The notes: generated by a model not told the origin, from the letters alone. A stretch of 64,000 nucleotides of DNA from Clostridia bacterium (GCA_017415485.1 JAFQGP010000075.1:635-64634), one strand, 5' to 3'; positions 10,492-59,978 are shown, counted from the first letter of the stretch. Made by a program: numbers and translations.

Positions 10492-10496
10492 ATAAA

Positions 10497-10537: not shown

Positions 10538-10539
10538 TA

Positions 10540-19871: not shown

Positions 19872-19885
19872 GTACTGACTTAATA

Positions 19886-20305: not shown

Positions 20306-20341
20306 CGCGTATTAATTATTTTACTAAAACAGAGATGAACT

Positions 20342-34584: not shown

Positions 34585-34602
34585 GCGAAAGGAGTCAAGA
34601 TA

Positions 34603-35913
34603 ATGAAAAATGCTATTAAAAACGCCGTTGCCGAGGCTGCAAAGGCTTACGGTGCTGAAGGCTATGAAGTAAAAATGGGTTCCTCCACCAGCGCGGCTGT
34701 TGAGGCACTTAAGGACGATATTTCTTCGGTTACTTATGACAAGAGCAAGAGCATCAGCGTAAGATGCGTCAAGGGCGGAAAGAGCGGCTATGCTTCGGGC
34801 AATATCGTAACTCCCGAGGAGGCTGCAGAGCTCGTTCGCCGCGCTTGCGAAAGCGCGCTTGTCGTTGACGACGCGGACGAGGTTCCACTTTTCGAGGGCT
34901 CGCCCGAATATAAGGAAGTTGAAAAGAAGGAAGTCGTCATTCCCTCCGCTGAAGAGATGATCAAGGAAACTATGGATATGCAGACCAAGATCATGGCTTG
35001 CGAGAAGGTAGTTGAGGGTTCGCAGAGCTTCATGCAGGTTTCTGCATCCGAGTCGAGCTTCTTCAACTCCGCGGGACTTGATCTCGATTATGAATCGGGC
35101 TACGTTGCAAAGGGCGCAGTTGCCGCTGTCAAGGACGGCGACGACGCGGAAGAGAACTACGAAATGAAGTTTGCGGACGAGATCTCGAACGATGAGCTCG
35201 TCAAGCTCGCATACGACGGCGCAGTTGCAAAGCTCGGCGGCAAGCCCGTTGACTCGGGCAAGTACAATATCATTATGGAACGCGGCGCAATGCGCTCGAT
35301 TATCAGCGTATTCTCGGGACTTTTCTCGGCGCGTTCGGCATTCCTCAAGACCACGATGTTCGCGGGCAAGGAAGGCGAGAAGGTTGCGGCTGACATAGTC
35401 ACCCTCATCGATGACCCCTTCCACGAGAAGAAGTTCGGTCATTGCCCCTTCGACGCAGAGGGCGTAGCGGTCTACACCAAGAGCGTAATCGAGGACGGTA
35501 CGCTCAAGACCCTCCTTTATAACCGTATGTACGCAAAGAAGTTCGACACCGAGACCACCGGTAACGCGACCAGCGCAAAGGGCATCGGCGTTCAGGGGCT
35601 CTATCTCAAGCCCGGTGAGCTTACCGAGGAAGAGCTTCTCGCAAAGCTCGGCGACGGACTTTATATCACCGATCTCAGCGGTCTGCACGCAGGCGTAAAC
35701 GCTGTCAGCGGCGATTTCTCGCTCCAGGCGGCAGGATTCCTCGTCGAGGGCGGCAAGAAGACCCGCGCTGTCAAGAATATCACGGTTGCGGACAACTTCT
35801 ACAAGCTCATCTTCAAGGTCACCGCAATTGCAAACAACCTCAGCTTCGGCACAGGTTCGAGCTTCGGTGCTCCCGACGTAATGTTCTCGGATATTGCTAT
35901 CTCCGGCAACTAA
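34603..35913 (+). CDS. pmbA: PmbA/TldE-family protein
   Basis: 436 aa. C-terminal GLHAGVNAVSGDFSLQAAGFLVEGGK is typical of the TldD/PmbA fold but lacks HExxH. Follows tldD. Confidence 0.85.
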   Translation: MKNAIKNAVAEAAKAYGAEGYEVKMGSSTSAAVEALKDDISSVTYDKSKSISVRCVKGGKSGYASGNIVTPEEAAELVRRACESALVVDDADEVPLFEGSPEYKEVEKKEVVIPSAEEMIKETMDMQTKIMACEKVVEGSQSFMQVSASESSFFNSAGLDLDYESGYVAKGAVAAVKDGDDAEENYEMKFADEISNDELVKLAYDGAVAKLGGKPVDSGKYNIIMERGAMRSIISVFSGLFSARSAFLKTTMFAGKEGEKVAADIVTLIDDPFHEKKFGHCPFDAEGVAVYTKSVIEDGTLKTLLYNRMYAKKFDTETTGNATSAKGIGVQGLYLKPGELTEEELLAKLGDGLYITDLSGLHAGVNAVSGDFSLQAAGFLVEGGKKTRAVKNITVADNFYKLIFKVTAIANNLSFGTGSSFGAPDVMFSDIAISGN

Positions 35914-35937
35914 AAACATAAAAGGACTGTAATTATT

Positions 35938-37023
35938 ATGAATAAGGTAAGAATTGGTATAATCGGCTGCGGCGGCATTGCTAACGGCAAGCATATGCCC
36001 TCTCTCGCGAAGCTGAAGAACGTTGAAATGGTCGCTTTCTGCGACATCGTAATCGATAAGGCAGAAAAGGCTGCCGCAAAATTCGGAACTCCCGATGCAA
36101 AGGTTTATGAAAACTACAAGGAACTCCTTGCTGACGAGACCATCGACGTGGTTCACGTTTGCACCCCCAACCGTTCGCATTCCTTCATCACAGTTGACGC
36201 CCTCGAGGCAGGCAAGCACGTAATGTGCGAGAAGCCGATGGCAATCAACTCGGTTGAGGCAAAGAAGATGCTCGACGCCGCTGAAAGAACCGGCAAGAAG
36301 CTCTCCATCGGCTATCAGACACGTAACCGCGCGGATGCCGTTTACCTCAAGAAGCTCGTTGACGACGGTATGTTCGGCGATATCTACTACGCGAAGGCAA
36401 CCGCTCTTCGCCGCCGCGCAGTTCCCACCTGGGGCGTGTTCCTCAACGAATATGAGCAGGGCGGCGGTCCTCTGATCGACATCGGAACCCACGCGCTCGA
36501 CCTCACACTTTATATGCTGAATAACTATAAGCCCAAGTATTGCGTCGGTACCGCGTACCACAAGCTCTCGCAGGGCGATCCCGAGCATCAGGGCAACGCG
36601 TGGGGCAACTGGGATCCCGAGAAGTTTACTGTTGAGGATTCCGCGTTCGGTTTCGTTGTTATGGAAAACGGCGCGACAATCAATCTTGAATCCGCTTGGG
36701 CACTCAACGTGGCTGACCCCCGCGAGGCTGTGACCTCCTTCTGCGGCACTCTTGCAGGCGCGGATATGAACAATGGCCTCCGCATCAACGGCGTTGCACA
36801 CAACGCGCAGTATGAGTTCAAGCCCAACCTTGACGCCAAGGGCGCGGCATTCTTCGACGGCCACGGCAACGAATCCCCCGCCGACCGCGAGGCAAGGCTC
36901 TGGATCGAGGCTATCGTAAACGATACCACTCCCCTCGTCACTCCCGAGCAGGCTTATACCGTAACAAGAATTCTTGAAGGTATCTATACTTCGGCTAAGA
37001 CGGGAGATATCTATAGATTTTAA
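35938..37023 (+). CDS. Gfo/Idh/MocA-family oxidoreductase
   Basis: IGIIGCGGIANGKH Rossmann motif and the EKP motif (MCEKPMA). Confidence 0.85.
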   Translation: MNKVRIGIIGCGGIANGKHMPSLAKLKNVEMVAFCDIVIDKAEKAAAKFGTPDAKVYENYKELLADETIDVVHVCTPNRSHSFITVDALEAGKHVMCEKPMAINSVEAKKMLDAAERTGKKLSIGYQTRNRADAVYLKKLVDDGMFGDIYYAKATALRRRAVPTWGVFLNEYEQGGGPLIDIGTHALDLTLYMLNNYKPKYCVGTAYHKLSQGDPEHQGNAWGNWDPEKFTVEDSAFGFVVMENGATINLESAWALNVADPREAVTSFCGTLAGADMNNGLRINGVAHNAQYEFKPNLDAKGAAFFDGHGNESPADREARLWIEAIVNDTTPLVTPEQAYTVTRILEGIYTSAKTGDIYRF

Positions 37024-37079
37024 AACAATAGTTTAATTCGTAAAAGCAGGTCAACTCGATGGACAGAAGGAGAATAGAA

Positions 37080-38603
37080 ATGAAAAATAATATATGTAAT
37101 CGTATTATTGCTCTTGTAATGTCTATGATCATGATGACATTTGTTTTCACTTCCTGCGCCGATCATCCTGATCCGGAAATTACAACAGAAACTCCCCAAG
37201 CAAACACTCAAGCTCCGGCAGATGAAACGACCTCCGATCCGCGTTATGATTCGAAGGGATATCTGAAAGACGACATTCCTGCTGATCTGGACTACGGAGG
37301 TAAAACTATCAACCTGTTGGTTTGGGATGACGTTGAGCATGAAGAGTTTTTCATCGCTTACGAGGAACTTGGCGGAGATATTGTTGATCAGTCTATCTAT
37401 GACAGAAATGCAAAGGTCGAATCAAGGCTTGGAGTTACACTGTCATTTATACGTGTTAAAGGCAATTCGGAAAATATTTCTTCTTGGAACTCTTATGTAA
37501 ATAACTCTGTGTCCACCAATGCGAAAGAATTTGATATTCTTGCGGGTTATTCGATCTCCATAGCAAAATGTGCTTCGAGCGGATATCTTTATAATATGCT
37601 TGACAAGGAATGCGAGTATCTCAATTTTGAACAGCCTTGGTGGAGTCAGTTGTTGCTCGAACAGGCTACTTTCGGTGATAATCTCTATTTTGCGTCGGGC
37701 GATATTTCGCGAAATGCGCTTGAGATGATGTATGTTTGTTATGTGCAAAACGGTCTTCTTGCTCAATATAATCTTCAGAACCCTCAGGAGGTCGTTCCAT
37801 CCGGCGATTGGACTTATGAAAAGTTTATCGAAATGTGCAAGGGTGTATATAAGGACGACGGAGACGGAGCAAAGAATTGCACAAAGGAATCGGGCGATGT
37901 GTTTGGCTACGTTACCTCGCGTATTCATGTTGACCCTTGGTTCTACGGATCGGGTGCAACGATATGCGAACGCAACGAAAGCGGAGAGATCATTGAATCT
38001 CCTTCATTCACCGGTGAGCGTGTAGCTAATACCGTTGATATGCTGACAGAATTGCTTCACAAGAGCAATGACGGAATCTTCACATCCGAAGTTACACATC
38101 AGGACGCGTTTGGGCAGGGAAGGACCCTTTTTATGATCGAACGCGCGAGAGTTTCGCATAATACGTTGGCTAAGAAATACGGAGATGTTACATTCTCGGT
38201 TGTTCCCTGTCCCAAGTATGACAAAGATCAGGAAAAATATATTACCGTAATGGGCAATCCATTCACCCTTTATGCTATCGCATCGGATATTGGCGATCCG
38301 AAAATGGCATCTGCCTTCATCGAGTGTTTTGCTTCGGAAGGCTACCGACAGGTAACCCCCGCGGTATTTGAGCTTTCTCTCAAGACAAGATACGTTTCCG
38401 ATTCAGTTTCGGGAGTTATGTATGATTTGATAAGAGAAAACGTCACCTATGATGTTGGACGTCTCTTCTCGGATGAGCTTATCGGTCAGAATAACTTCAG
38501 AAAGGCTATATCCGATGACCAAAACTGGGGTTCTGTAGCAGTTCAGGCATCGAAGACGCTTGCAAGACAGCTTGTAAAGCTAAACCAAGCGCTTAATAAG
38601 TAA
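37080..38603 (+). CDS. large extracellular solute-binding lipoprotein (paralogous in type to 12051-13619)
   Basis: Start at MKNNICN after AAGGAG. Lipobox FTSC. Same architecture and scattered shared motifs (e.g. PWWSQ versus PYWSQ) with the other binding protein. No permease genes nearby. Confidence 0.75.
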   Translation: MKNNICNRIIALVMSMIMMTFVFTSCADHPDPEITTETPQANTQAPADETTSDPRYDSKGYLKDDIPADLDYGGKTINLLVWDDVEHEEFFIAYEELGGDIVDQSIYDRNAKVESRLGVTLSFIRVKGNSENISSWNSYVNNSVSTNAKEFDILAGYSISIAKCASSGYLYNMLDKECEYLNFEQPWWSQLLLEQATFGDNLYFASGDISRNALEMMYVCYVQNGLLAQYNLQNPQEVVPSGDWTYEKFIEMCKGVYKDDGDGAKNCTKESGDVFGYVTSRIHVDPWFYGSGATICERNESGEIIESPSFTGERVANTVDMLTELLHKSNDGIFTSEVTHQDAFGQGRTLFMIERARVSHNTLAKKYGDVTFSVVPCPKYDKDQEKYITVMGNPFTLYAIASDIGDPKMASAFIECFASEGYRQVTPAVFELSLKTRYVSDSVSGVMYDLIRENVTYDVGRLFSDELIGQNNFRKAISDDQNWGSVAVQASKTLARQLVKLNQALNK

Positions 38604-38605
38604 CA

Positions 38606-39913
38606 ATGGAATACTACCTTAACCCCAACGACCCGCGATTTATGGGCAAAGACGATTCAGAATCGATACAGAATGCGGTCAACGCCGCGGAAAACGGAGA
38701 AGTCCGAACAGTTATCATTCCTCGCAGATGCGAGAGAACGGGACTTGACGAATGGACTATATGCCGTTCGATATTGCTTCCTTCCAATATTACCGTTATT
38801 CTTGACGACTGTCACCTCACCCTCGCCGAGGGTGTTTATGAGAATATCTTCCGAAACAAGAATATGTATACCGATGTGTCGCTTTCTTCGGAAGGAATTC
38901 AGCGCGGTATTCGCATAATCGGCAGAGGCAATGCCGTGCTCGACGGCGGTAAGGGCAACGATCTCAACCAGAAAACGTCTTGCCTCGACGGCCGTCCGCA
39001 CGTGCGGTTCAACAATTTCGTCCTGCTTCAACACGTGGAAGATTACGTGCTTGAAAATTTCAAGTGCATCAATATGCGCTGGTGGGCGATCAATCAGATC
39101 TGCTGTAAGCACGGAAGGCTCTCAAACTTGAGCTTTTTCAACGGCGTGAAGATACCGAATCAGGATGGGATCAACCTTCGCATTGGCTGCTCGGATATAC
39201 TTATCGAAAATATCACGGGCAGAACGGGCGATGACGTTGTCGCGCTGACCGCACTACCGCTTGGTTCAGACAAGGATCTCGTGCCCGAGGACGGTGATAT
39301 CGACATCCACGACGTAACCATCCGTAACGTTCGCGCGCACACCCGCCAGTCGGTCGTGGCTCTGAGAAATCAGGACGGCTCGAAGCTTTATCGCATATCG
39401 ATCGAGAATATTGCCGACGTCGGCGGCGAGTACGGGCCTTGGGGAGTAGTTCGAATCGGTGAAAATAACTATTTCCGAAGCCGACCCTCGGTGCTCGGAG
39501 AAACCTATGAGATCAACGTCCGCGGAGTGTATTCACTCTGCAGAGGCACCGTTTTTGTCAACGCAACGCTCAAGGATTCGTCGATCCGCGACGTTTACGC
39601 GGGCGGTACGTCAATGGCGGCGGTTTCGACCTTCAGAATGCCGAGCAGATCCTGGGTCGGATGCATGATCGAAGGCGGCGTGACGATGCAGAATGTCGTG
39701 TTCGAAAATATCCATTACAACGGCTCGGCGGGGCATCCCGATGAAAATAAGCTCAATTTCCCCGGCACGGACTATCCCGGCTGCGCGCTTGATTTCAGAT
39801 GTATGCGCGAATGCGACACCCTTGACAGGGTAGTGTTCAGAGATATTTTCACCCGCGAAGGCGCAGAACTTGCTATGATAGACGAAAGATTTGCGCTTGA
39901 TATAAGAAATTAA
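38606..39913 (+). CDS. right-handed beta-helix protein, GH28-like (polygalacturonase-type motifs), no signal peptide
   Basis: NQDGINL ... GRTGDDVVAL ... resembles the GH28 NTDG / G(D)DC(I)A catalytic motifs. 435 aa. Confidence 0.6.
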   Translation: MEYYLNPNDPRFMGKDDSESIQNAVNAAENGEVRTVIIPRRCERTGLDEWTICRSILLPSNITVILDDCHLTLAEGVYENIFRNKNMYTDVSLSSEGIQRGIRIIGRGNAVLDGGKGNDLNQKTSCLDGRPHVRFNNFVLLQHVEDYVLENFKCINMRWWAINQICCKHGRLSNLSFFNGVKIPNQDGINLRIGCSDILIENITGRTGDDVVALTALPLGSDKDLVPEDGDIDIHDVTIRNVRAHTRQSVVALRNQDGSKLYRISIENIADVGGEYGPWGVVRIGENNYFRSRPSVLGETYEINVRGVYSLCRGTVFVNATLKDSSIRDVYAGGTSMAAVSTFRMPSRSWVGCMIEGGVTMQNVVFENIHYNGSAGHPDENKLNFPGTDYPGCALDFRCMRECDTLDRVVFRDIFTREGAELAMIDERFALDIRN

Positions 39914-39936
39914 TAATTATATTTAGGAGAAAAAAC

Positions 39937-40905
39937 ATGAAACTTTGTGTTCTTGAAAATCTTTACGGAAACAAGACTCTTGAGGAGTCTTTGTCGATCC
40001 TTACCTCGCTTGGCGTACATACCGTTGAGGTTGGCGCGGGCGGATATCCCGGAAAGGCTCATTGCAATCCCGCAGAGCTTCTTGCCGACGAGGCAAAGTA
40101 CAACGCTTTCGTTGAAACCTTTAAGAAATTCGACGTCGAGATCGCGGCGCTGGCTTGCCACGGCAACCCCCTGCATCCCGACAAGGCTATCGCAGCGCAG
40201 TTTGACAAGGACTTCCGCGAGGCTATCCTTCTTGCAGAAAAGCTCGGCGTTAAGACTATCATCGGCTTCTCGGGCTGTCCCGGCGACAGCGAGGGCTCGA
40301 AGTACCCCAACTGGGTAACCTGCCCCTGGCCCGATGACTTCCTCACCATTCTTGAATGGCAGTGGAACGAGAAGGTAATTCCTTACTGGCAGGAAATGGG
40401 CGCATTTGCGACTGCTCACGGCGTTGAGCATATCGCATTCGAGATGCACCCCGGCTTCTGCGTATACAATCCCGAAACACTCCTGAGGCTCCGCGCGGCT
40501 GTCGGTCCCGTTATCGGCGCAAACGTTGACCCCTCCCACCTTATCTGGCAGGGAATGGATCCCGTTGCCGCTATCCGCGAGCTCAAGGGCGCGATCTATC
40601 ACTTCCACGCGAAGGATACCAAGGTCGATAAGTATAACACCGCAAAGAACGGCGTTCTCGATACCAAGCATTACAGCGACGAGCTTAACCGCGCGTGGGT
40701 ATTCCGCGCAGTCGGATTCGGTAACAACGAGTCTTATTGGAGAGATATCATCTCCAACCTCCGCCTCTGCGGCTACGACGGAGCTATCTCCATCGAGCAC
40801 GAGGATAGCATTATGACAGTCGACGAGGGACTCCGCAAGGCGATTTCTGTGCTTGCTCCCATCGTAATGACAGAGGATAAGCCGAGAACGATTTCTTGGG
40901 CATAA
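39937..40905 (+). CDS. sugar phosphate isomerase/epimerase (xylose-isomerase-like TIM barrel)
   Basis: Pattern IAFEMHPG...DPSHLIWQG...HFHAKD...SIEHED of the AP_endonuc_2/TIM family. Confidence 0.8.
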   Translation: MKLCVLENLYGNKTLEESLSILTSLGVHTVEVGAGGYPGKAHCNPAELLADEAKYNAFVETFKKFDVEIAALACHGNPLHPDKAIAAQFDKDFREAILLAEKLGVKTIIGFSGCPGDSEGSKYPNWVTCPWPDDFLTILEWQWNEKVIPYWQEMGAFATAHGVEHIAFEMHPGFCVYNPETLLRLRAAVGPVIGANVDPSHLIWQGMDPVAAIRELKGAIYHFHAKDTKVDKYNTAKNGVLDTKHYSDELNRAWVFRAVGFGNNESYWRDIISNLRLCGYDGAISIEHEDSIMTVDEGLRKAISVLAPIVMTEDKPRTISWA

Positions 40906-40916
40906 TCCGAACAACA

Positions 40917-41085
40917 GCGGAAAGTTTTTTGGAAATTCTTAAGAAACTTTTTTTCAAAAAAGTTTCTTAAGTCGCACTCCGCAGAGTGCGAAATTCCCCT
41001 TGTGCTTCGAACCGCCTGCGCCCCGCAGGCGGTTCGGAAGGATTAAACCCACCCCTCGCGGGTGGGTTTAATCCTTCACTACTAT
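40917..41085. repeat. four-hairpin structured repeat, copy A
   Basis: Hairpins at 40938-40971, 40971-40990, about 41007-41039 and 41041-41073. The core CTTAAGTCGCACTCCGCAGAGTGCGAAATTCCCCTTGTGCTTCG recurs inverted at 49301-49350. Confidence 0.8.
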
Positions 41086-41101
41086 ACTATGAGGTGTAAC
41101 T

Positions 41102-41926
41102 ATGTATAAAAGAATCCTCCTCGCCCTCGATCTTGAAGGCGTAAATAACGTCAAGGGCGTTCCCTACGAAGCACTCTCAAAGGACACCGACGAATGGAAG
41201 ATCGCAAAATCGCAAGCCGCTCTTGAGATCAACGCCGCGGCTGATGCCCTTTTCCGCGCGGGTGCCGAGCGAGTTGATCTTTGGGATAACCACGGCGGCG
41301 GTCATAATATCGATCCCGCAGACCTCGACCCGCGCATCATGCTCCTTGATCCCGACCTTTCAAAACCGAGAATGTATTTTGCCGATGACTACGACTGCGT
41401 CTGCTACTTCGGCTATCACGCAATGGAGGGCACCCTCGGCGGCGTGCTGGCGCATACTATGAGCAGTAAGACCGTGCAGTTCTATAAGCTGAACGGCAAA
41501 TATATCGGCGAGATCGATATGGACGCCTATATCGCCGCATCGCACGGTAAGCCCTCTGTGTTCTTCGCGGGCGGTAATATCGCGTGCTCGCAGGCAAAAC
41601 ACGCCGTGGAGTCGATCGTTACCGTCATCACAAAGCACGAGATCTCGCGAAATGAAGCCGAATTCCGCGACAATTCCGAGCTTTTTGCCGAAATAGGCAA
41701 AAAGATCACCGAAGCGGTAAATACTGAACACGGATATAAAACGCTTGATTTCCCCGCGAGATTTGAAAAATCCTTCAAACGAGTTGAGGACACGGCAAAG
41801 TATCTTGCCCGCTTGCAAAAAAGAGGCATCGAAGCTGAATACCTCACCGATGAAGTCCTCGGCAAAGACGCCCATACCGTCGTTTCCACGGTTCACAATA
41901 TTGAGGAATTTATTGTTTGCATATAA
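41102..41926 (+). CDS. M55-family D-aminopeptidase (Bacillus DppA-like)
   Basis: ILLALDLEGV..., FGYHAMEGT and GVLAHT motifs. 274 aa. Confidence 0.75.
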   Translation: MYKRILLALDLEGVNNVKGVPYEALSKDTDEWKIAKSQAALEINAAADALFRAGAERVDLWDNHGGGHNIDPADLDPRIMLLDPDLSKPRMYFADDYDCVCYFGYHAMEGTLGGVLAHTMSSKTVQFYKLNGKYIGEIDMDAYIAASHGKPSVFFAGGNIACSQAKHAVESIVTVITKHEISRNEAEFRDNSELFAEIGKKITEAVNTEHGYKTLDFPARFEKSFKRVEDTAKYLARLQKRGIEAEYLTDEVLGKDAHTVVSTVHNIEEFIVCI

Positions 41927-41933
41927 AGAAATA

Positions 41934-41976
41934 ACGGATACTCAACCCCTTTCGGGAAATTGAGTATCCGCTTTTT
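41934..41976. terminator. bidirectional terminator between the peptidase gene and the phage-like operon
   Basis: ACGGATACTCAA...TTGAGTATCCGC followed by TTTTT. Confidence 0.75.
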
Positions 41977-41982
41977 GATTAT

Positions 41983-42372
41983 TTAATCGGGATATACGTC
42001 AGCCGTGGAGCCCTTAACGAAGGGGATTTCGGCGGAGATGGCGGCGAGGGCGTCGCACCATCGGTCGAAGAGCTTTTCGTAAAGCTCGGTGTCCTCGTCG
42101 AGGATCAGCATTGCTGCCATATAATATGCCGCGGCGGGCGCGAATCGGTCGGAAAGGGGAAAATCCGAATCGAGGCTGAGAAAGAGAGCGGGGAAGGGCT
42201 CGGCTTCATCAAGCCCAAAGGCTTTGCGGTAGGCTCTGTCGAGCGCCGCCGCCTCGGTGCAGAGCGCTGCGCCTATGTAAGGTGCGCGCTCCGCAAGCTC
42301 GGACTCGGAGATCGAGTCGCTCACCTCGCCGATAAGTCGCAGGGCGGTATCGTAAACGCTTTGCAGGGTCAT
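41983..42372 (-). CDS. small phage protein, possible head-tail adaptor/head completion protein
   Basis: 129 aa. Last gene of the head operon, directly after the capsid gene. Assigned by position only. Confidence 0.4.
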   Translation of the reverse strand: MTLQSVYDTALRLIGEVSDSISESELAERAPYIGAALCTEAAALDRAYRKAFGLDEAEPFPALFLSLDSDFPLSDRFAPAAAYYMAAMLILDEDTELYEKLFDRWCDALAAISAEIPFVKGSTADVYPD

Positions 42373-42393
42373 TCTTTACCTGCCTTTCGGGAC

Positions 42394-43212
42394 TTACGCG
42401 GCAACGGTAAGGTCGAGTCTTACCATCTCGGTGGGATAGATGACCTGCGCGCCGTAGAGGTGAAGTCCCTTAACGGCATCTGCAAAACGTCTTTCGGGGC
42501 GGTAAGCATCGATCTCGGAAAGCTGCTCGGCGAAAGCGATGGCACGCTTGGAACGAGCCACGCACTTGTGTACGTTTTCTGCGACAACAACGTTGTTGGA
42601 AACGTATACCTTGCAGCCCGCAACGTAACCGATGCAACCTGCCTCGAGAGCGGTATCGTTGTTGGAGACGTTGATCTTGCTCTTGAGGATCAGCGCGCCG
42701 ACTGCGGGGGATACTTCAACGACGATATCGCCCGGATCATAGACGTTGTTTTCAAGAAGCTTGGTGCGCGCGTCGATAATGAGACCGAGAATGTTGTCCA
42801 CGTTTGCGGTGGCTTCGATGTTGGATCCCGCAAAGGCGCAAAGGGAGAAGATGTACTGATCCGCTGTGTTTGCAAGTGCTGCCGCGGCATTCTTTACAGC
42901 GGCATCCATGAGTCTAGGCTCGCTCTGTGCGCGGTCGATGTCATCGATCTGGAAGTTGAATGCCTTCGCCTGATCGATCCTCATTGTCTTGACGCCGTCC
43001 GAAAGCTCCTGCGCGCCGGTTTCGAAATCAGTATTCTTGGTATAGTCAAAGACGTTGATGTCGCCGATGCCGCAGATCTTTACACGGTCGCCTCGGTTTT
43101 TGATCTCGCCCTCAAACTCACGGTTGCAGTTTGCGACGGCGATGTACTTTTTGTCCATCTGGGAAAGAAGAGTTTCGCTCCATACGGTAGATATAAAGTT
43201 TGTAAGTGACAT
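42394..43212 (-). CDS. putative major capsid protein
   Basis: 272 aa, immediately downstream of the scaffold-like gene. The N-terminus MSLTNFISTVWSETLLSQMDK.. resembles P22-coat-like or other small capsid proteins. Mainly positional. Confidence 0.55.
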   Translation of the reverse strand: MSLTNFISTVWSETLLSQMDKKYIAVANCNREFEGEIKNRGDRVKICGIGDINVFDYTKNTDFETGAQELSDGVKTMRIDQAKAFNFQIDDIDRAQSEPRLMDAAVKNAAAALANTADQYIFSLCAFAGSNIEATANVDNILGLIIDARTKLLENNVYDPGDIVVEVSPAVGALILKSKINVSNNDTALEAGCIGYVAGCKVYVSNNVVVAENVHKCVARSKRAIAFAEQLSEIDAYRPERRFADAVKGLHLYGAQVIYPTEMVRLDLTVAA

Positions 43213-43247
43213 TATTTAAGTTCCTTTCTTATTTTGAATTTTTTGTT

Positions 43248-43691
43248 TTAGTGCCAGCTCTTCATTGAGCGGCGGATCTTTTCGATGTTTTTTCTGACCT
43301 CGGCGGGTTTCATTGCGCGAACCTCGGCGGGGGAATAGAGGCTGTCCTCGGCACTTTCTATTCTGCCGAAGGATTGCTCGCGTGCTTTGCGGTATGCACG
43401 CGCGATCTTGATCTGTTCCACCTCGCGACGGCGAAGCTCAAGCGCGTATGCCGCGGCGGGAGGTATTCCGCGTTCAAGCGCGGCATTGAAGGAATCGGGA
43501 AGCGTGGAGATATCCGCATCGGGGTAAAGCTCGGTAAATTCGCGCCACCCCTCGGTGATCTCTCTGGCGGCACGCTCGGCTTTTTCAAGCTTTGCACGCA
43601 AGTCATCAAGCTCGGTGTGAAGATCGGGTTCGACCGTGTCGGCTTCCTCCGCAAGTACTTCTTCGGTTATCAGATCAATCGTTTCGTCCAT
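43248..43691 (-). CDS. putative scaffolding protein
   Basis: 147 aa, highly charged and predicted helical (DDLRAKLEKAERAAREITEGW...). AGGAGG precedes the ATG at 43691. Overlaps the portal stop. Sits between portal and capsid. Confidence 0.55.
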   Translation of the reverse strand: MDETIDLITEEVLAEEADTVEPDLHTELDDLRAKLEKAERAAREITEGWREFTELYPDADISTLPDSFNAALERGIPPAAAYALELRRREVEQIKIARAYRKAREQSFGRIESAEDSLYSPAEVRAMKPAEVRKNIEKIRRSMKSWH

Positions 43692-45228
43692 CGTGGACCT
43701 CCTTTCTGTGCGCTTCTGCAAGCACTCTGCGTTCGGGAACGAGTCCTTCGGGCAGTCTGTCAAGATATTCCGCTGTGCTGATGTGACCGCCTTCGAGAAG
43801 CTTGTCGAGCACGCTCAAAGTTCCCGATGCGGAATAGCGAGCCGAATCGCAAACGTCGATCTTCGCGCAAAGAAGCAGGGAATGAAGGCTTGAGGGAAAG
43901 ATCTTGCCAAAACCGTCGCGAGTGCGAAGAGGTCTGCCGTCGGGGCAGAAGCAGAGCGTCATATCTGCCCAAATGCAAGCCATTTGCTCGAGGCAGAGAT
44001 AAAGTGCACTTTGAACGTGCTCAAGCGCCTGCATGGATGCCTCGCGAAGTGCGAGGATCGCGCTTGTGTTGGTGGGATTGACGTTGCCGAGTGCGGTGTC
44101 CGTCGCTCCCGCAAGCTCCTTTGTCATCGCAACTGCTGTTTCGATCAGCTCGAGATAGCCCTCCTCGAGCTTGCCCGTGCCGACCACGGTTACCGCATCG
44201 GCAAGATTGCCTCCGCCAACAGCGCCGATCGCCTCGCCGATCTCGTTTGTCCATTCGGGAATACGGGTGCGGTCATAGATGACCTTTGAAAACGCCGTGT
44301 CGGTCATGTGCTTCATGAGCATTGCGTATGCACGGTTGATGTATTTCTGATTGGCGATCATTGAACTCACGGGCGAATTGCCGAAGAAGCAGTTTTTAGC
44401 TTTTTGCCAGGAAAAATGAGCGATGGGATAAAGCTTGCAGGGCGTTACGATACGCTTGATGAGGCAGTCGCGGGTGGATTTTTCAAACACTACCTTGCCG
44501 TTTTCGCGGAAGAATTTGATGAGGTAGGTCGCGCGTTCCTCGCCGCCCTCATATTCGGGCTCGTATTTTGCAAGCTCACCCGCGCCTTTTTCGGTAAGCT
44601 CGAATTTGCCGTCGGCGGTGATCTTGGATAAATCCTTCTCGGAAACTCCCGCGGCGCGAGCTTCGCGGCGAAGCTGATCGACGCTTGCTCTGCCCGAGAT
44701 GATTATGTAATCCTGCGACTGAATGTCGGGATTGGTGACGTCGGCGGGGAAGACGTTGGCGGAATCGAGCGTTTCAGTCACGATGTCGCCCATCCAACCG
44801 TCGCATCCGCGTGAATCGGCGTCCCAGGAGCAGTAAAGAAGTCCGTCGCCCGAGAGAGCTGCGTCGTAAAGCAGACTGTAGATCACGCTTTGCAGACGCG
44901 AATGCTCCCAACGGTATGCGGCGTTTTCGGTGAGCAGATCGATTGCCTTTCTGATCCTTTCCGCTTCTGCGGAATTTGGCGCGAAGGGTAGGTTTTCGTC
45001 CGAATACGTTATCTTGACGTCGCCGACGGCGGCACTTGAAACGAGATAATCAACTATACGGCTGATGACGTTGAAGACGGGTTTGGGAAGTCCTTCGCCG
45101 CCGCGCCATTGGTCGCCTCGGTAAAACCGCTCGTTTTCGGCTATTCGCGAGTAAAGACCGATCTGTCTTTTGTAGTTCCTACCGGCTTCATACTGCCGCC
45201 AGGTCTTGATTTGTGATGTTTTGGTCAT
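43675..45228 (-). CDS. putative portal protein
   Basis: 517 aa. N-terminal ..ENERFYRGDQW.. is the type of motif seen in portal/connector proteins. Position within the packaging/head gene order. Confidence 0.65.
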   Translation of the reverse strand: MTKTSQIKTWRQYEAGRNYKRQIGLYSRIAENERFYRGDQWRGGEGLPKPVFNVISRIVDYLVSSAAVGDVKITYSDENLPFAPNSAEAERIRKAIDLLTENAAYRWEHSRLQSVIYSLLYDAALSGDGLLYCSWDADSRGCDGWMGDIVTETLDSANVFPADVTNPDIQSQDYIIISGRASVDQLRREARAAGVSEKDLSKITADGKFELTEKGAGELAKYEPEYEGGEERATYLIKFFRENGKVVFEKSTRDCLIKRIVTPCKLYPIAHFSWQKAKNCFFGNSPVSSMIANQKYINRAYAMLMKHMTDTAFSKVIYDRTRIPEWTNEIGEAIGAVGGGNLADAVTVVGTGKLEEGYLELIETAVAMTKELAGATDTALGNVNPTNTSAILALREASMQALEHVQSALYLCLEQMACIWADMTLCFCPDGRPLRTRDGFGKIFPSSLHSLLLCAKIDVCDSARYSASGTLSVLDKLLEGGHISTAEYLDRLPEGLVPERRVLAEAHRKEVHDGRND

Positions 45229-45242
45229 TGTTCCTCCTCTGT

Positions 45243-46976
45243 TTACTTTGCTGAAAGAATGACGCTGTAAATGACGGCGGGCGAGTCTGTCTCAACGATC
45301 AAACGAAGCTTTTTGAATCGCGGCATCGGTATGCGGCAAGAGAATTGCTCGCGTCCTCCGCCTGCCTTGCCGTGAAGGGGCGCCGTCACACGCTCGCCTT
45401 TTTCGGTTTCAAGAGTCAATGTGCCGCTCCCGCCCGAAAGATCGTATTCGAGCACCACGGCGGCGCTCCTTTTTGTTTTCTCGGGGCATCCGAAATCCAA
45501 AAAGTGAGTTACAAGCTTTGATTTGATCGGGAACACTTCGTCCGACTCGTTGTCATTCGTGAGATCGTCGAAAAATACGTATATGCAACCACCTCTTGAG
45601 AATGCGGGCAGATTGCCGTAGCGGAAGAGCCTTTCGGCAAAGATCCCGCGATAGACGGTCCATGCTTTCCGCGCCAGATCGTAAATAAGGAGCCTGCCCT
45701 CGCTGTCTTCGGCGTCTGCGATGAAGATCTTTTGTTTTTGCGGCAGAGAAAGCATTGATATTTTTTCCGAATCTTTGGGGATGAGAGCCGATACCTCATC
45801 CGACAGCATCGAAGCACTGCACTCGTCGCGAACGCCCGATTGAGAATGCCAGCGCCAAAGTCTGCCGCAAAAGTATGTTATCGGGTCGTTGTCGAAATAT
45901 GCGGAGCTGGGGATATATTCGGCTCCGATCGCTGAATTCAGCAGAAAGCTTTGCGGCTTCAGAGCCTCGGTATTTGCTTCGTCGCCGTTCCAATCGATGA
46001 ACCAGGCATCCTTTTCGGTGAAAAGTATCCCTCTGCCGTAATGATGAGCAATGTTTGTTATCGGATAAGCTCCGCTTCCGATGCAAAGTGCAGATGATAC
46101 GGGGACGTAAAGGGGGATGGCATTCGGTGCTGTAAGCTGTGAGTAGGAATGTGCGCTTCTGCTGACCGGCACGGATGAATACAGATTGCAGGAGATTCCG
46201 GGATTATAAAGGCAAAGCCGCTCGCCGCCGTTATTGCCGAAAACGAATGCTTTGGCGGCTTGCTTCATTCTGCTTGATTCCGAAGACTCAGGCGGCAATG
46301 TAAGCCAAAATGTGACATTCATCGTTCCGGTGAGCGAGATGGTGTGCGCAACCGATGGATATTCCTCGTCAAGATAAATATTGTTCTCGGCAAGGTCAAC
46401 CTCAGTTCCGTTGATCTCGACCCTGTCGATCGATGCTGCGTTGATACCAAGGTTGAATCTGTTGGTCGTTGACGTAACCGAATAGGATATTCGTATGCGA
46501 TCAGAAAGAAGATTCAGATCTTCGTTTATCGCACCGCAGGATCTTGGATGCCATCCGATACCGTAAAGGGGCGCATAGCCTTCAACAAGGATAAGCTCTC
46601 CGTCTTTCAGGTAATAAAAGACTTGCCCGTCGTGGACGTAGAGATTTCCGCCAAAGCAGAAGATATCCGCTTCTCCCTCGGCGTTAGCAAGATCGCCTAC
46701 TTTCTCGGAGCTGCCGCTTTCGATGTCGGTGATTATCAGCGAATCGCCTATAACGGAGTATAGCTTGTCGGCAAAATTGAAGCTTGCGCGCAGATTGCCC
46801 TGATACTCGGCAACCGAGGCGTAGCCCGCTCTCGTCTTCAGCGAGCCGTCGGCATCAAGATCGAGGTTTTCGGTAAGATAGCAATTCCCCCGCTGCCGGG
46901 TGCGGTCTATGCCGCCAAAGCCATCCTCATACATCCGCTCAACGCCGAGGGCATTTTTGAATTTGAAGCTCTTCAT
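45243..46976 (-). CDS. 577-aa phage-associated protein of unknown function
   Basis: Intact ORF tightly packed between terL and the portal gene. No motif recognised. Confidence 0.6.
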   Translation of the reverse strand: MKSFKFKNALGVERMYEDGFGGIDRTRQRGNCYLTENLDLDADGSLKTRAGYASVAEYQGNLRASFNFADKLYSVIGDSLIITDIESGSSEKVGDLANAEGEADIFCFGGNLYVHDGQVFYYLKDGELILVEGYAPLYGIGWHPRSCGAINEDLNLLSDRIRISYSVTSTTNRFNLGINAASIDRVEINGTEVDLAENNIYLDEEYPSVAHTISLTGTMNVTFWLTLPPESSESSRMKQAAKAFVFGNNGGERLCLYNPGISCNLYSSVPVSRSAHSYSQLTAPNAIPLYVPVSSALCIGSGAYPITNIAHHYGRGILFTEKDAWFIDWNGDEANTEALKPQSFLLNSAIGAEYIPSSAYFDNDPITYFCGRLWRWHSQSGVRDECSASMLSDEVSALIPKDSEKISMLSLPQKQKIFIADAEDSEGRLLIYDLARKAWTVYRGIFAERLFRYGNLPAFSRGGCIYVFFDDLTNDNESDEVFPIKSKLVTHFLDFGCPEKTKRSAAVVLEYDLSGGSGTLTLETEKGERVTAPLHGKAGGGREQFSCRIPMPRFKKLRLIVETDSPAVIYSVILSAK

Positions 46977-47029
46977 GTTTTTTCCTTTCGTTGTATTTTC
47001 ATTTTTTGACGCGGTACAGACGTTGTTTT

Positions 47030-48370
47030 TCAGTCAAAAAATGAATTTGATCGATCATTTCTGAATCGGAATTTGTGACCACCCTCCTCGGCTGCGGCGA
47101 AACGGCTCATAAGAGCGTATCTCAGCGCCTCGGGCGAGTGGGTGACCGAGTGCGGCTCGCCCGAGGCGTCTTCGGTGCGGTTTTTGTCGAAGAGCAGGGC
47201 GGGCAGGCATCTTATCAGCTCGCGGCAGCGCTCGCTGATGAGTAAGCCGGGGGTGCCGTCATCACGGTCGGCAAGATATTCGCGGACAACTCTCCATCCG
47301 GGAATGCGCCTGTCATCCGCAGGACGCATCGGCGGCATACCTTCTGCGGATTGCATGATCTCGAATCCGCTTTTTCCGCTGTCCTGCCTGCGGTTCCAAA
47401 GGTCGGGTGACGCAACGGCAAATTCCACACCCTTCCCTCGGCAAAGCTCGCTGATCTTTTTTGCGGCTTCGCCGAGCGTCAGGTTCGGGGCGCAGAATTC
47501 GTCGGTGACGTAGACCCTGCCCGTTCGGTCGCAGATGCAGATGTAGGCGGCGAGCATATCAAAACCGTAGTCAAAGGCGGCGATCGTGTGGTAAGCGCGC
47601 GGGATGGCTGTGGCGGCGCATACGTGACGAGCCTCATCGAATTCGGTAAAGAATTGCCCCTCGAAGATGTCCCATTTTCCGTAAAGCCAAGCCTCGCGCA
47701 AGCGTGTCGGCAAGGATTCCAGCCGCCGCACGTAGTCGGGATCGGCGCGGGTGAGGATATCGTTGTCGAAAACGGTTGCGGGGACGAAGGCGTAATCATC
47801 GGGATTCTCACCCGTGCGGTATTCGCGGTCGATAAAGAGCCTTTTGACCCAGGCGTGTCCTATCCCGCCGGGATTGCAGGTGAGATAGATCCGCCTTGGG
47901 CGGTCCGACGTGCCTCGCAGACAGGCCTTGAAGATCGAAAACTGATATTCGCTCAGTTGCGTTGCCTCGTCGAGGGCTATGACGTCGTATTCCTGACCCT
48001 GATAGCGGAGTGCATCGCGTTCCGAGGCGGCGTAGCCGAGGGTGATGCGGCTCCCGTTTTCAAGGGTCAGCTCTTTGTCGCGCTCGCTGTAAGAGAGGAT
48101 CGCTCCGTATTCGGCGAGCAGGGGAGAGAGATGATTTGAGCGGAGTTCGGGGAGAGTTCTTCGCACAAGCAGGCAGCGAAGTCCGGGGTATCGCAGGCAC
48201 ATAAGCACAAGCTTTCGCCTCAGCGCCCATGATTTTCCTCCACCGCGCGCTCCGCCATAGGCAACGTACTTTTGCCGACAGGCGAAAAATTCGCGCTGAC
48301 GGCTGTTCGGCGAGCCTTTTATGTGGAGCGCGCGTTCGGGTGCACTATCCGCCGTCTTCATAAGCGTCAT
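47030..48370 (-). CDS. terL: terminase large subunit
   Basis: Walker A YGGARGGGKS, Walker B YDVIALDEAT and coupling motif LTCNPGG. C-terminal nuclease-type acidic residues. 446 aa. Confidence 0.9.
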   Translation of the reverse strand: MTLMKTADSAPERALHIKGSPNSRQREFFACRQKYVAYGGARGGGKSWALRRKLVLMCLRYPGLRCLLVRRTLPELRSNHLSPLLAEYGAILSYSERDKELTLENGSRITLGYAASERDALRYQGQEYDVIALDEATQLSEYQFSIFKACLRGTSDRPRRIYLTCNPGGIGHAWVKRLFIDREYRTGENPDDYAFVPATVFDNDILTRADPDYVRRLESLPTRLREAWLYGKWDIFEGQFFTEFDEARHVCAATAIPRAYHTIAAFDYGFDMLAAYICICDRTGRVYVTDEFCAPNLTLGEAAKKISELCRGKGVEFAVASPDLWNRRQDSGKSGFEIMQSAEGMPPMRPADDRRIPGWRVVREYLADRDDGTPGLLISERCRELIRCLPALLFDKNRTEDASGEPHSVTHSPEALRYALMSRFAAAEEGGHKFRFRNDRSNSFFD

Positions 48371-48767
48371 GGTCGAAGATCAGTCGGAGCTGACCCGTAT
48401 CGGTTATCCCTGTTTCTTGCTTTTCCTCGCCCGAATAACCCAGGCGGAGCTTGAGATAGACCGAAAGGATGGAGGCGGACATTTCCGAGTTGAGAGCCTC
48501 GTCCTCGAGAGCGGCGCAAAGCGCGCCGTGAACCTCGGGGCGTGTGTTTCGAAGCCTTTCAAAATCGGAGAGGGTGCTGCGGGTAAATCTGCAAAAGCCT
48601 GCGACGTTCGGTATCCTGCCCGCGTTTTTGCGCTTTCCGTCCGCGCCCTCGGCTTGGCAGAGCGCGAGATATTCGTCAAACAGCTTGACGATGCTCCCGT
48701 TATCTGCCGCTTCCTCGAGCGCGGTACGGTTTGGTTCGTTCTGCGGTCCTTGGTCGTTTGCGGACAT
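48345..48767 (-). CDS. terS: terminase small subunit
   Basis: 140 aa from MSANDQ (GAGG upstream). HTH-like IPNVAGFCRFTRSTLSDFERL and the C-terminal ..YLKLRLGY pattern of small terminases. Overlaps the terL start by 26 nt. Confidence 0.65.
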   Translation of the reverse strand: MSANDQGPQNEPNRTALEEAADNGSIVKLFDEYLALCQAEGADGKRKNAGRIPNVAGFCRFTRSTLSDFERLRNTRPEVHGALCAALEDEALNSEMSASILSVYLKLRLGYSGEEKQETGITDTGQLRLIFDHDAYEDGG

Positions 48768-48889
48768 TCTGACCTCGCTTTCCCGTCTGTACCGCAATCA
48801 TTTTACCGCCGATGGGAGTCTCATCCCGAAACCGATAGTCTGCGTGAGTCTCAAGAGTATCACGGGTTTTGCATAAAAAAGAAAAAACT

Positions 48890-49240
48890 CCCCATTTGGA
48901 GAGAAAAAGCCGGAAAGTTTTTGTCCAACTTTTTTAAAAGGTGGCAGAGTTCGAGACAGCGTCTCGAATCAAATGCGAAAGTGCGGCTCTGGCGGTTTTC
49001 CGTAGGAAAATGGAGGCGTAAGCCGACAAGCCAGAGTCGTCATTTGCCGAAGGCAAATAGTTTAGCTTTCGCCACAATGCTTCGGAACGGTGTCTCCGTT
49101 CCGAACCTAAAAAGGACTTCCCGAATGTAGGGAAGTCCTTTTTAGGTTAATATTAAACTCAATTAAGCTCTGATTATGCCGTTCTTTATACTATCCGCCT
49201 TGTGTGCTGCTTTGAGGATAACAAAAAATCTTGATATAAC
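48890..49240. repeat. dense run of unrelated short hairpins ('hairpin forest')
   Basis: For example CGAGACAGCGTCTCG, CATTTGCCGAAGGCAAATAG, GGAACGGTGTCTCCGTTCC, AAAAAGGACTTCCC-GAATGTA-GGGAAGTCCTTTTT. Confidence 0.7.
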
Positions 49241-49400
49241 ATAAATGGCATCACCGCGAGGGTGATGCCATTTATGTTCGGAATGTCGGCGGGGCGCCGC
49301 CATTCCGAAGCACAAGGGAAGTTTCGCGCTCTGCGGAGCGCGACTTAAGGCGCTGCCTTAAGAATTCGCGAACTTTTGAAAAAGTTCGATCAAAACTTCA
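49241..49400. repeat. four-hairpin structured repeat, copy B (inverted relative to copy A)
   Basis: The reverse complement aligns with 40917-41085. The linkers and loops are shared. Two of the stems differ in sequence between copies but each remains self-complementary. Confidence 0.8.
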
Positions 49401-49404
49401 TCCT

Positions 49405-49448
49405 TTTTAATAAAAATGAAAATTTCCGCCCGAATCGGGCGGAAATTC
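49405..49448 (-). terminator. intrinsic terminator of hprK
   Basis: The minus strand reads GAATTTCCGCCC-GATTC-GGGCGGAAATTTTCATTTTTATT. Confidence 0.8.
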
Positions 49449-49480
49449 ACCATAACTTTTCACTTTTCACTTTACACTTA

Positions 49481-50416
49481 TCACTCTTCAATCCCCATCA
49501 TCGCCATCAGTCTCTTATTAAACTCCTCGGCGGTGTTATATCCCATCTTCTTCTGGCGGTTGTTCATCGCCGCGATCTCAAGGATGATGGCGAGGTTTCG
49601 TCCGGGGCGGACGGGGATGGTCAGCGAGGGCAGCTCGATGCCGAGAATGTTGACGGTCTGATCGTCAAGACCGAGGCGGTCGTACATCTTGCCCTGAACC
49701 CAGGATTCAAGATTGATGACAAGGTCGAGCTTTTCGGTGTCCTTGACCGCGCTGATACCGTAAAGACGCTTGACGTCGATGATACCAATGCCGCGAAGCT
49801 CAACATAGTGGCGCAGGATCTCGGGTGCCGAGCCGACAAGAGCCTTTTTCGATACTCTCTTGATCTCAACGGCATCGTCCGCGATAAGACGGTGGCCTCT
49901 CTTTACAAGCTCGATCGCGGTTTCGGATTTACCGACTCCGCTGTCGCCGAGGATGAGGATACCCTCGCCGTAGACCTCAACAAGTACGCCGTGGCGCGTG
50001 ATGCAGGGCGCGAGATGCACGTTGAGCGAGGCGAAGAGCGCCGCCATGGTCGCGGAGGTCAGCTCCTCGGTCGAAAGAAGCGGAACTTCGTATTCTTCGC
50101 AGTATTTTATCATCTCGGGGAATGCTTCAAGTCCCGAGGTATAGAGGATGACAACGGGCTTCTTTGCCACAAAATTGCGTATGCGGGCGTCGCGCTGGCT
50201 TTCGCTCATATTTGAAATATAGCTGTACTCGGCGTTGCCGATAAGCTGTATACGCGATTCCTCAAAAATATCGAGAAAACCCGAAAGCGCAAGTCCGGGG
50301 CGGTCGACCTCGGGCGCGGTGACGAAGATTTCCTCCGCAGGGTGCGGAAGGTATATTTCTTTAAGCTTGAATTCCTTGATAAGAGCCGAGAGCGATATTC
50401 TGTTCTTTTCTTCCAT
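49481..50416 (-). CDS. hprK: HPr kinase/phosphorylase
   Basis: P-loop GDSGVGKSETA and LIADDAVEI motifs. 311 aa. Confidence 0.93.
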   Translation of the reverse strand: MEEKNRISLSALIKEFKLKEIYLPHPAEEIFVTAPEVDRPGLALSGFLDIFEESRIQLIGNAEYSYISNMSESQRDARIRNFVAKKPVVILYTSGLEAFPEMIKYCEEYEVPLLSTEELTSATMAALFASLNVHLAPCITRHGVLVEVYGEGILILGDSGVGKSETAIELVKRGHRLIADDAVEIKRVSKKALVGSAPEILRHYVELRGIGIIDVKRLYGISAVKDTEKLDLVINLESWVQGKMYDRLGLDDQTVNILGIELPSLTIPVRPGRNLAIILEIAAMNNRQKKMGYNTAEEFNKRLMAMMGIEE

Positions 50417-55524: not shown

Positions 55525-55748
55525 TTAGTGGTCAGTGGACAGAAAGAAGCGGTTTTTGTTTAACATAACCAAAACCGAATAATCAAAATTGTGCAATAAT
55601 ACAAAATAGCAAGTCAGGAAAAAGTATTTCTTGACTTGCTTTTTTGTTTATGATAAAATAAAATTAGGGTAATTTTTATAAAAAGTGTAACCAAAGTGGT
55701 TTTTTCGTGTCTATATAAGTAGAGGTAACCGAAAAGGAGGTAAAGTCT

Positions 55749-57182: not shown

Positions 57183-57209
57183 TTTTTATCAAGAAAGGAC
57201 GGTAAAACG

Positions 57210-58676: not shown

Positions 58677-58703
58677 TTTTTACCAAGAAAGGACGGTAAA
58701 ACA

Positions 58704-59951: not shown

Positions 59952-59978
59952 TTTTTACCAAGAAAGGACGGTAAAACG

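Follow-up and report, generated by a model that had tools for sequence, protein, structure and literature searches.

Inverted hairpin repeats around a phage-head gene block in gut Clostridia are arms of a multi-copy structured repeat family

Introduction

In a 64,000-nt stretch of DNA from a Clostridia bacterium (GCA_017415485.1, JAFQGP010000075.1:635-64634; hereafter the window, with positions counted from its first nucleotide), two copies of a hairpin repeat, A and B, lie in inverted orientation on either side of a gene encoding an M55 peptidase and a block of phage-head genes. Their arrangement raises the question of whether they delimit an inserted or invertible segment of about 8 kb, as a preliminary description made from the sequence alone had suggested, or whether the repeats and the genes between them are independent of each other, and what kind of element the repeat is. 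We found that A and B, together with a third copy, C, are arms of an undescribed multi-copy family of structured non-coding repeats. The family is hosted by uncultured gut Clostridia, including Oscillospiraceae-like metagenome-assembled genomes (MAGs) and Ca. Avispirillum, and by some phage or prophage contigs. The arrangement of A and B around 8 kb is coincidental.

Structure of copies A and B

A 28-nt core, CTTAAGTCGCRCTCCGCAGAGYGCGAAA, occurred exactly twice in the window, at 40966-40993 on the plus strand and at 49322-49349 on the minus strand, against an expected count of 0 in 100 shuffles, which bears out the near-identical core that had been described for A and B. A core of 44 nt is common to A and B and absent from the rest of the window, and the two arms form a 61-nt inverted repeat with 85% complementarity. 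The A..T versus G..C difference between them, located inside the hairpin TCGCNCTC-CGCA-GAGNGCGA, is compensatory as had been proposed, and the conserved tail CCCTTGTGCTTCG was found in A and B alike. Both copies are predicted to fold far more stably than shuffled controls (A, -96.8 kcal/mol, z = -11.8; B, -110.7 kcal/mol, z = -9.9).

Copy A (40921-41079, plus strand) is a solo arm that scored 63.6 and 54.9 bits with the covariance models R1 and R2 described below. It begins with the motif AAAGTTT (40921-40927), followed by a hairpin, hp1, with the stem CTTAAG..CTTAAG (40938-40971) and with a further hairpin, hp0, nested in its loop. Downstream are hp2 (TCGCACTC-CGCA-GAGTGCGA, 40972-40991), the C-rich linker AATTCCCCTTGTG (40992-41004), hp3 (41005-41040) and hp4 (41036-41077). 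Hairpins hp3 and hp4 overlap, as the 3' end of the former shares GGAAG with the base of the latter (GGAAGG). Copy B (49238-49399, minus strand; R1 87.6 bits, R2 115.1 bits) consists of the 5' motif GAAGTTTT (49399-49392), hp0 (CGAACTTTT-TC-AAAAGTTCG, 49388-49369), hp1 (CTTAAGGC-AGC-GCCTTAAG, 49362-49344), hp2 (TCGCGCTC-CGCA-GAGCGCGA, 49343-49324), the linker AACTTCCCTTGTG (49323-49311), hp3 (49310-49276) and hp4 (49278-49238). The preliminary description counted four hairpins, but B has five, hp0 being the additional one upstream; the same hp0 is present in A, inside the loop of the CTTAAG hairpin. Likewise, the downstream hairpins do have similar loops on different stems, although the 'conserved' CTTCG is part of the hp3 stem, and the supposed bulge in the imperfect stem of B is a G-A mismatch in hp3.

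Occurrence and covariation of the repeat family

One degenerate pattern scan identified loci L001-L003 in MAGs of Ca. Avispirillum and two 'Eubacteriales', a second identified L004-L007 in a high-GC gut metagenome lineage, and a relaxed pattern identified three IMG/VR contigs (L032-L034). Two covariance models, R1, comprising hp1, hp2 and the linker, and R2, which also includes hp0, were run on loci fetched through protein neighbours. R1 or R2 recognized more than 25 arms, which are distributed over about 12 distinct genomes or contigs. Three of these lie in the 64-kb window, and three arms were present in 21 kb of L028 and four in 12.6 kb of L034.

The 5' domain of an arm is about 100 nt in size and contains, in order, AAAGTTT, hp0 with a CTTTT..AAAAG core, the junction GCGRRTT, hp1, hp2 with its CGCA loop and the C-rich tail RAAYNYYCCC. 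It is followed by one or two interchangeable GC-rich hairpins, the last of which is often terminator-like. Two layouts exist in the family, one in which hp0 is separate from hp1, as in B, and one in which it is nested in the hp1 loop, as in A. The GC content of the core varies from 38 to 80%, yet the CGCA loop, the AGM loop, CTTTT..AAAAG, AAAGTTT and RAAYNYYCCC stay fixed; hp2 is absent or altered in copy C and in L032.

The proposal that structure is the selected feature was upheld, as stems co-vary across 15 copies while their loops are constant. In hp1 and hp2 of 15 distinct arms (from approximately 10 genomes or contigs), 99.6% of cells pair and two-sided changes were found in 11 of 16 pairs, a number reached by 0 of 500 shuffles; pairing dropped to 31-48% in slid controls. 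The variable pair of hp2 takes all four Watson-Crick states (A-T, G-C, C-G and T-A). A structure-blind alignment of eight copies (MAFFT/RNAalifold) recovered hp0, hp1 and hp2 with compensatory changes in 11 of 24 pairs, and in hp3 and hp4 of A-type arms, those resembling copy A in position, 11 of 27 pairs were compensatory. Covariation in the family is strong, contrary to the lack of significant covariation that the preliminary description had named as a refuting outcome.

No Rfam 15 family reached its gathering threshold on the repeat when the window was scanned, Gut-1 being detected elsewhere only, and the best sub-threshold hits in E-value scans of A, B, the B-C composite and one L034 composite were noise (csRNA 20-25 bits versus 57; tfoR 24 versus 70). 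A blastn search with copy B against plasmid and phage records gave no match, and a first, stricter pattern scan of viral sequences gave no copy. No earlier description of the repeat family was found in the literature searched.

Copy C and the B-C foldback

The statement that the 8.15 kb between A and B contain exactly the M55 gene and the head module has to be amended, as a degenerate copy, C (48912-49148, plus strand), lies there too, convergent with B. It was recognized by R2 (37.1 bits, E 3e-10 to 1e-12), with the match spanning 48908-48991 on the plus strand. Copy C has the 5' motif GGAAAGTTTTT on the plus strand, hp0 (CCAACTTTT..AAAAGGTGG, 48925-48944) and hp1 (TTCGAGAC-AGC-GTCTCGAA, 48950-48968); the hp2 position is degenerate. 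Further downstream are an hp3-like hairpin (CTTCGGAACGG..CCGTTCCGAA, 49078-49104) and a bidirectional terminator-like hairpin (49105-49148).

The real partner of B is C, not A. The two are convergent, lie about 310 nt apart and share inverted-repeat arms at 48915-48945/49368-49398 (81%) and at 49078-49104/49286-49312 (74%). Together they form a foldback composite of about 490 bp (48912-49399) with facing arms and the outer termini AAAGTTT...AAACTTT. Convergent pairs were also found in L014, in the dnaA-dnaN spacer of L028, in both L004 and L007, where an XRE gene lies upstream of them, and at two places in L034. The composites of L034 are homologous from end to end, measure about 495 bp and have 101-nt arms that are 83% complementary, and the L028 pair has 32-nt inverted arms at 94%. 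Solo arms are represented by A and by the copies in L001-L003.

The composites are small and non-coding, the sole internal stretch resembling an open reading frame (ORF) being a remnant of a helix-turn-helix (HTH) gene in the centre of B-C (49149-49237). The centre includes a short hydrophobic ORF, MPFFILSALCAALRITKNLDIT (49166-49234, plus strand). A type I toxin was considered for this ORF and rejected, because it is the decayed C-terminus of a 60-amino-acid XRE-type HTH gene that is intact in L013.

Comparison of related genomes

Contigs encoding an HPrK identical to that of the window were compared around hprK. L009 is the same as the window and carries both A and B. In L014, B is present and both A and the M55 gene are gone; the gap corresponds exactly to A plus M55 (window 40906-41929), and an 85-nt heptad/terminator segment is found instead. 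Neither repeat is present in L008, L010-L012 and L017, which have a gene of 314 amino acids in the place of B and a different far flank, or in L013, which has other cargo and a divergent array. In L015, B is partial as a result of a deletion running from the B linker to the outer terminus of C, and the contig ends in the portal gene before the position of A. More distant relatives, L023 (HPrK 88%) and L024 (83%), have the head block adjoining hprK with an empty spacer and no B. In L029 and L030 the head block is on the other side of the cluster containing the AP_endonuc_2 and M55 genes, and unrelated genes follow M55. Elsewhere the repeat occurs in unrelated places, following dnaA or genes of the amidase, S1-domain or XRE type, and inside phage contigs.

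This distribution in strains and species indicates that A belongs to the spacer upstream of M55, that B-C is a strain-variable insertion and that the head block is independent of both. We therefore regard it as very improbable that A and B are recombination sites or scars at the inverted boundaries of an inserted or invertible 8-kb segment. That idea draws on the fact that A and B are inverted and are the best-matching copies in the window, and on the rearrangement of the region between species. However, the head block is accompanied by A alone, by B alone or by neither of them, A stays with AP_endonuc_2 and M55 even where the head block is elsewhere, the piece gone from L014 is A plus M55 and not the 8-kb segment, and B pairs with C. 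No inverted segment was seen among more than 15 related contigs, in which the internal orientation was the same throughout, and no recombinase gene was identified by Pfam and PHROGs in or beside the 41-49.4 kb segment. Signs of an integrated prophage or island were likewise lacking there, the repeats being inverted and not direct and no integrase being present. Relatives thus carry the block without the flanking repeats, and block and repeats are independent, which agrees with the caveat in the preliminary description that the bracketing could be a coincidence. Another outcome that it had named as refuting, a repeat at hundreds of random sites unassociated with boundaries, was borne out as to the missing association but not as to hundreds of sites.

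A rearrangement was noted in L029 and L030, where comparison of positions 1-10825 with window positions 34000-48800 placed the cluster from malic enzyme to M55 on the opposite side of the head block and in the opposite orientation to it. One breakpoint adjoins the head gene of 129 amino acids, and no repeat arm is present at that junction.

The head-only phage block itself (41983-48797, minus strand), whose genes were assigned by Pfam and PHROGs and are not part of the repeat, encodes a TerS-like protein of 140/150 amino acids, TerL, a 577-amino-acid protein without assignment, a P22-like portal, a protein of 147/171 amino acids, a major head protein and a protein of 129 amino acids. It is kept across species (81-100% marker identity), and variation is confined to the flanking cargo; in L008, L013, L023, L024, L028, L029 and L030 it is retained amid changing neighbours without its bracketing repeats. 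No integrase, tail or lysis genes were found near it, and it resembles a domesticated module for head formation and packaging. The region upstream of the TerS-like gene (approximately 48800-48870, minus strand) is conserved in L023 (11035-11100) and L024 (10985-11050); in it, TTGAGACT occurs twice as a direct repeat at a spacing of about 30 nt, and GGTAAAAT comes next. This region is a candidate for a regulated, non-canonical promoter of the head block.

Variation in the hprK-TerS spacer

The spacer between hprK and the TerS-like gene contains B-C in the window, L009, L014 and L016, is empty in L023 and L024, has an internal deletion in L015 and holds other genes in L008, L013 and L025. Relative to the empty site of L023, the boundaries of the insertion or deletion are the outer AAAGTTT termini. 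The deletion in L015 (3930-3945, compared with window 48905-49325) removed about 370 nt, fused GAAACTTTCC in the linker of B with AAAACTTTCC at the outer end of C and left a solo 5' domain. It represents recombination between short direct repeats (AAACTTTCC) created by the symmetry of the foldback.

The same spacer (48800-49480; L008, L013, L015 and L023-L027) is a hot spot for cargo, which may be a lipoprotein-like gene of 314 amino acids, a lipoprotein-like gene of 442 amino acids with an HTH gene of 60 amino acids, an AAA/DUF4143 ATPase gene or nothing, and one foldback arm often remains beside it. The 314- and 442-amino-acid cargo proteins were considered as a parent transposase and rejected, having no Pfam hit on record and lipoprotein-like signal starts.

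Copy A in the AP_endonuc_2-M55 spacer

Copy A is part of a unit (39937-41926, plus strand; Pfam, synteny) in which it separates the AP_endonuc_2 gene (39937-40905) from the M55 peptidase gene (41102-41926), and a ribosome-binding site for M55, GAGGTG, lies about 15 nt after hp4. An arm was present in this spacer in every species sampled (L023, L025-L027, L028, L029, L030 and L031; M55 81-100% identical), always co-oriented with both genes. These A-type arms are 68-83% identical between species, where the four-fold sites of M55 are merely 51-60% identical, and their hp3 and hp4 contain 14 G.U cells versus one C.A cell when read on the sense strand. The M55 site thus provides evidence of constraint on a sense-strand RNA. 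In addition, the separate and nested layouts alternate among the orthologous arms and the hp3 stems differ, suggesting that arms at this site were converted or replaced by other family members.

The relation of an arm to the next gene was as in a riboswitch or 5' leader at the M55 site only; elsewhere the next gene was convergent, absent or unrelated. A leader or riboswitch for M55 was rejected as a general explanation of the family, since other copies are without a downstream gene.

Neighbouring genes, promoters and strand

Genes flanking the arms are unrelated to each other (amidase, S1-domain, membrane protein, XRE, DnaA, HPrK, AP_endonuc_2, EAL/GGDEF and phage TerL/portal genes), so that a leader specific to one gene is ruled out. 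Both solo arms and, in pairs, the first arm have the orientation of the upstream gene, and the next gene after an arm is often convergent. In the phage contig L033 (IMG/VR), an arm at 2432-2620 (plus strand) separates the genes for the large terminase and the portal, to which it is antisense, and has an insertion of about 40 nt inside hp1.

On the strand of the element, no sigma-70-like promoter was found to precede A or B, and no -10 or -35 element was conserved across copies. The arms of L028 and L030 are preceded by TATAAT boxes, which were considered as a promoter belonging to the element and rejected as they are not kept at other copies. Copy B is preceded by the terminator of hprK, which belongs to an upstream companion module (49420-49485, minus strand). 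In this module tandem (AGTGAAA/AGTGTAA) heptads (49454-49485) start directly after the hprK stop codon and are followed by the intrinsic terminator GAATTTCCGCCCGATTCGGGCGGAAATTT with a T-run (49420-49448). The order of heptads, terminator and arm was also found after dnaA and AP_endonuc_2 in L028, and heptads followed by an arm were found after AP_endonuc_2 in L030, where the terminator hairpin is not evident. The heptads are located at 1950-2010 and 9725-9800 in L028, at 8560-8640 in L014 and at 9740-9800 in L030 (as AGTGGAC), and downstream of them the window, L028 and L014 share the conserved terminator hairpin GAATTTCC...GGAAATTT.

A T-run follows hp4 in L003 and in the L028 arm designated L028A; it is missing from copy A and does not follow directly in B. 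The G.U count in hp3 and hp4 was the only test of strand that favoured the sense orientation. A four-way junction, which would arise if the 5' motif paired with the C-rich linker in a closing helix, was rejected, since own and non-own duplexes were equivalent (-4.46 versus -4.43 kcal/mol, permutation p = 0.46) and the helix was also not predicted by RNAalifold.

Possible nature of the element

We favour, with some reserve, the explanation that the family is a multi-copy foldback repeat built of hairpin modules, which spreads as a foldback and acts as a cis RNA structure, resembling MITEs (miniature transposable elements with inverted repeats) and the BOX and SPRITE repeats. The full element is a foldback of about 0.5 kb consisting of two convergent arms, with solo arms such as A persisting. 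It may represent mobile or selfish DNA, for which the foldback would be the unit of spread, without target-site duplication. Arms transcribed with their neighbours would yield stable RNA hairpins, which could serve in cis as an intercistronic barrier, an attenuator or a terminator, a function that has also been suggested for REP/BIME, BOX, SPRITE and bacterial MITEs, and the arms probably do act as an intercistronic or terminator RNA structure. Because its transcript would fold into stable hairpins, the element could be tolerated in genomes and may have been exapted at the M55 site.

A number of observations weigh against this explanation. No target-site duplication was detected at the two L034 composites or at the window and L014 junctions compared with L023, no parent insertion sequence (IS) or transposase was identified, and no transposase gene is near any copy in the sampled loci. 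The strict-pattern census comprised just three species and four contigs, which is an under-count because the tail/linker CCCTTGTG is variable and not conserved. With respect to a role in RNA, the second arm of pairs and the L033 copy are antisense to the local genes, hp4 of copy A is not a consensus intrinsic terminator (0 sites), and whole-arm folding energies showed no systematic difference between sense and antisense. Finally, arms of 30-100 nt far exceed the terminal repeats of 4-30 bp that are typical of MITEs, for which reason we do not file the family as a proven MITE, and loops and linkers are kept across genera and GC extremes, which is more typical of a dedicated functional RNA.

It is on account of the latter conservation that a dedicated structured RNA has to be weighed, although we consider it unlikely. 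The 5' domain of about 100 nt would then be a new RNA, for instance a small RNA that acts in trans through a C-rich seed, one that binds protein or one that resembles a ribozyme, encoded by multi-copy and sometimes paired genes for which the variable 3' hairpins serve as terminators. Strong covariation, invariant loops (CGCA, AGM, CTTTT..AAAAG) and junctions in several genera at 38-80% GC, the terminator-like hp4 with its T-run in L003 and L028A, the excess of G.U pairs on the sense strand and the lack of an Rfam match are all consistent with such an RNA, as is the presence of two permuted layouts at one orthologous site, a feature of some ribozymes. The single-stranded tail (UCCC/CCCUU) may be likened to the anti-Shine-Dalgarno seeds of small RNAs in Firmicutes. 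Against such an RNA, A and B have no sigma-70-like promoter upstream, the copies share no -10 or -35 elements, and B follows the terminator of hprK. Moreover, hp2 is absent or altered in copy C and L032, the arms occur in inverted pairs and, in L033, antisense inside a phage head operon, and the helix that would close the domain is unsupported. It is quite unlikely, in our view, that the hairpins act as single-stranded or cruciform DNA, with RNA being incidental and the arms being substrates of a transposase or recombinase supplied in trans, in the manner of REP/RAYT or IS200/IS605 PATE systems. Foldback pairs without target-site duplication, hairpin-rich ends with the conserved terminal motif AAAGTTT, a patchy distribution that includes phage contigs, a pair inside the dnaA-dnaN spacer and the similar stability of sense and antisense arms would fit a role in DNA. 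Against this, no Y1/HUH or other transposase is beside any copy, the arms greatly exceed REPs in size and complexity, a conserved target tetranucleotide is lacking 5' of the arms, G.U-only pairs are concentrated on the sense strand of A-type arms, and a solo arm has been kept long-term at one site across species.

A more speculative proposal, and an improbable one, concerns the 5' domain. It would constitute a new class of functional structured RNA with a permutable layout, riding on a strand-symmetric foldback of about 0.5 kb that moves between Clostridia and their phages. Owing to the symmetry, one sense copy would be transcribed in either orientation of insertion, and the RNA might act as a protein- or ribosome-binding insulator, as a processing signal or as a self-cleaving RNA.

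Relation to known repeats

MITEs are among the known systems closest to the family. Bacterial MITEs are typically shorter than 500 bp, are found in intergenic regions or 3' untranslated regions in several copies per genome and give rise to stable stem-loop transcripts; some insert within operons without breaking them, and truncated or solo derivatives exist (PMC10969869). Like QMITE2 of Coxiella, Correia/NEMIS of Neisseria and Chunjie of Geobacter, the present elements are non-coding, do not exceed approximately 500 bp and have inverted terminal arms, which are present in pairs (window B-C, L034, L028) and absent from the solo arm A. In contrast to MITEs, however, the arms are structured, co-varying hairpins, the element is not AT-rich and is without target-site duplication or an identified parent IS, and both sequence and structure are kept across genera of very different GC content.

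Enterobacterial REP/BIME sequences have a role in the protection of mRNA. They and the pneumococcal BOX, RUP and SPRITE repeats are, as here, modular hairpins located after genes or between cistrons, some of them terminator-like and clustering with other repeats. There is no sequence relationship between these repeats and the family described here, whose unit of 100-160 nt per arm is larger than REP; a unit of about 100 nt with three different hairpins replaces the palindrome of about 20-40 nt of REP/BIME. The copy number also seems much lower than that of REP and BOX (three arms in 64 kb), and no RAYT-type gene was seen around the sampled copies. BOX, RUP and SPRITE cluster and carry terminator-like modules, and a function in mRNA stability or termination has been suggested for BOX and SPRITE (PMC10969869). 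The Gut-1 RNA motif (RF01706) is likewise a hairpin array from uncultured gut bacteria, but its hairpins are separated by GUGAAAU and the arms do not match the Gut-1 model.

Other repeats in the window

A second foldback family was found at 1214-1557 and 19885-20308, with terminal inverted repeats of about 74 nt around a hairpin array. The two copies are mutually inverted and 18.3 kb apart, and a hairpin of the element, CTC-CGCA-GAG, resembles hp2. Rfam gave a single hit in the window, Gut-1 at 20051-20134 (plus strand; 50 bits, the same as the gathering score), which falls within this second foldback, and as a consequence the orphan Gut-1 motif may be part of a foldback repeat and not an RNA gene that stands alone. 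In addition, three to four tandem paralogous coding units of approximately 1.3-1.5 kb with 63-84% identity are present at 55733-60718, and a second set of internal repeats is located around 26.0-27.0 kb (25982-26989); both sets are unrelated to the hairpin family.

Significance

To our knowledge, nothing has been reported on non-coding repeats in uncultured gut Clostridia. The present analysis removes a tempting but wrong inference, namely that inverted repeats on either side of the phage-head genes mark a mobile or invertible segment, and it defines a searchable family by means of two covariance models and more than 25 instances with their boundaries and layouts. As compensatory evolution is unusually clean over a wide range of GC content, the family is a good candidate for Rfam curation and for transcript tests. 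The element is a structured interspersed repeat, with a modest chance of being a genuinely new functional RNA, and the family may explain hot spots of cargo exchange such as the spacer between hprK and the TerS-like gene.

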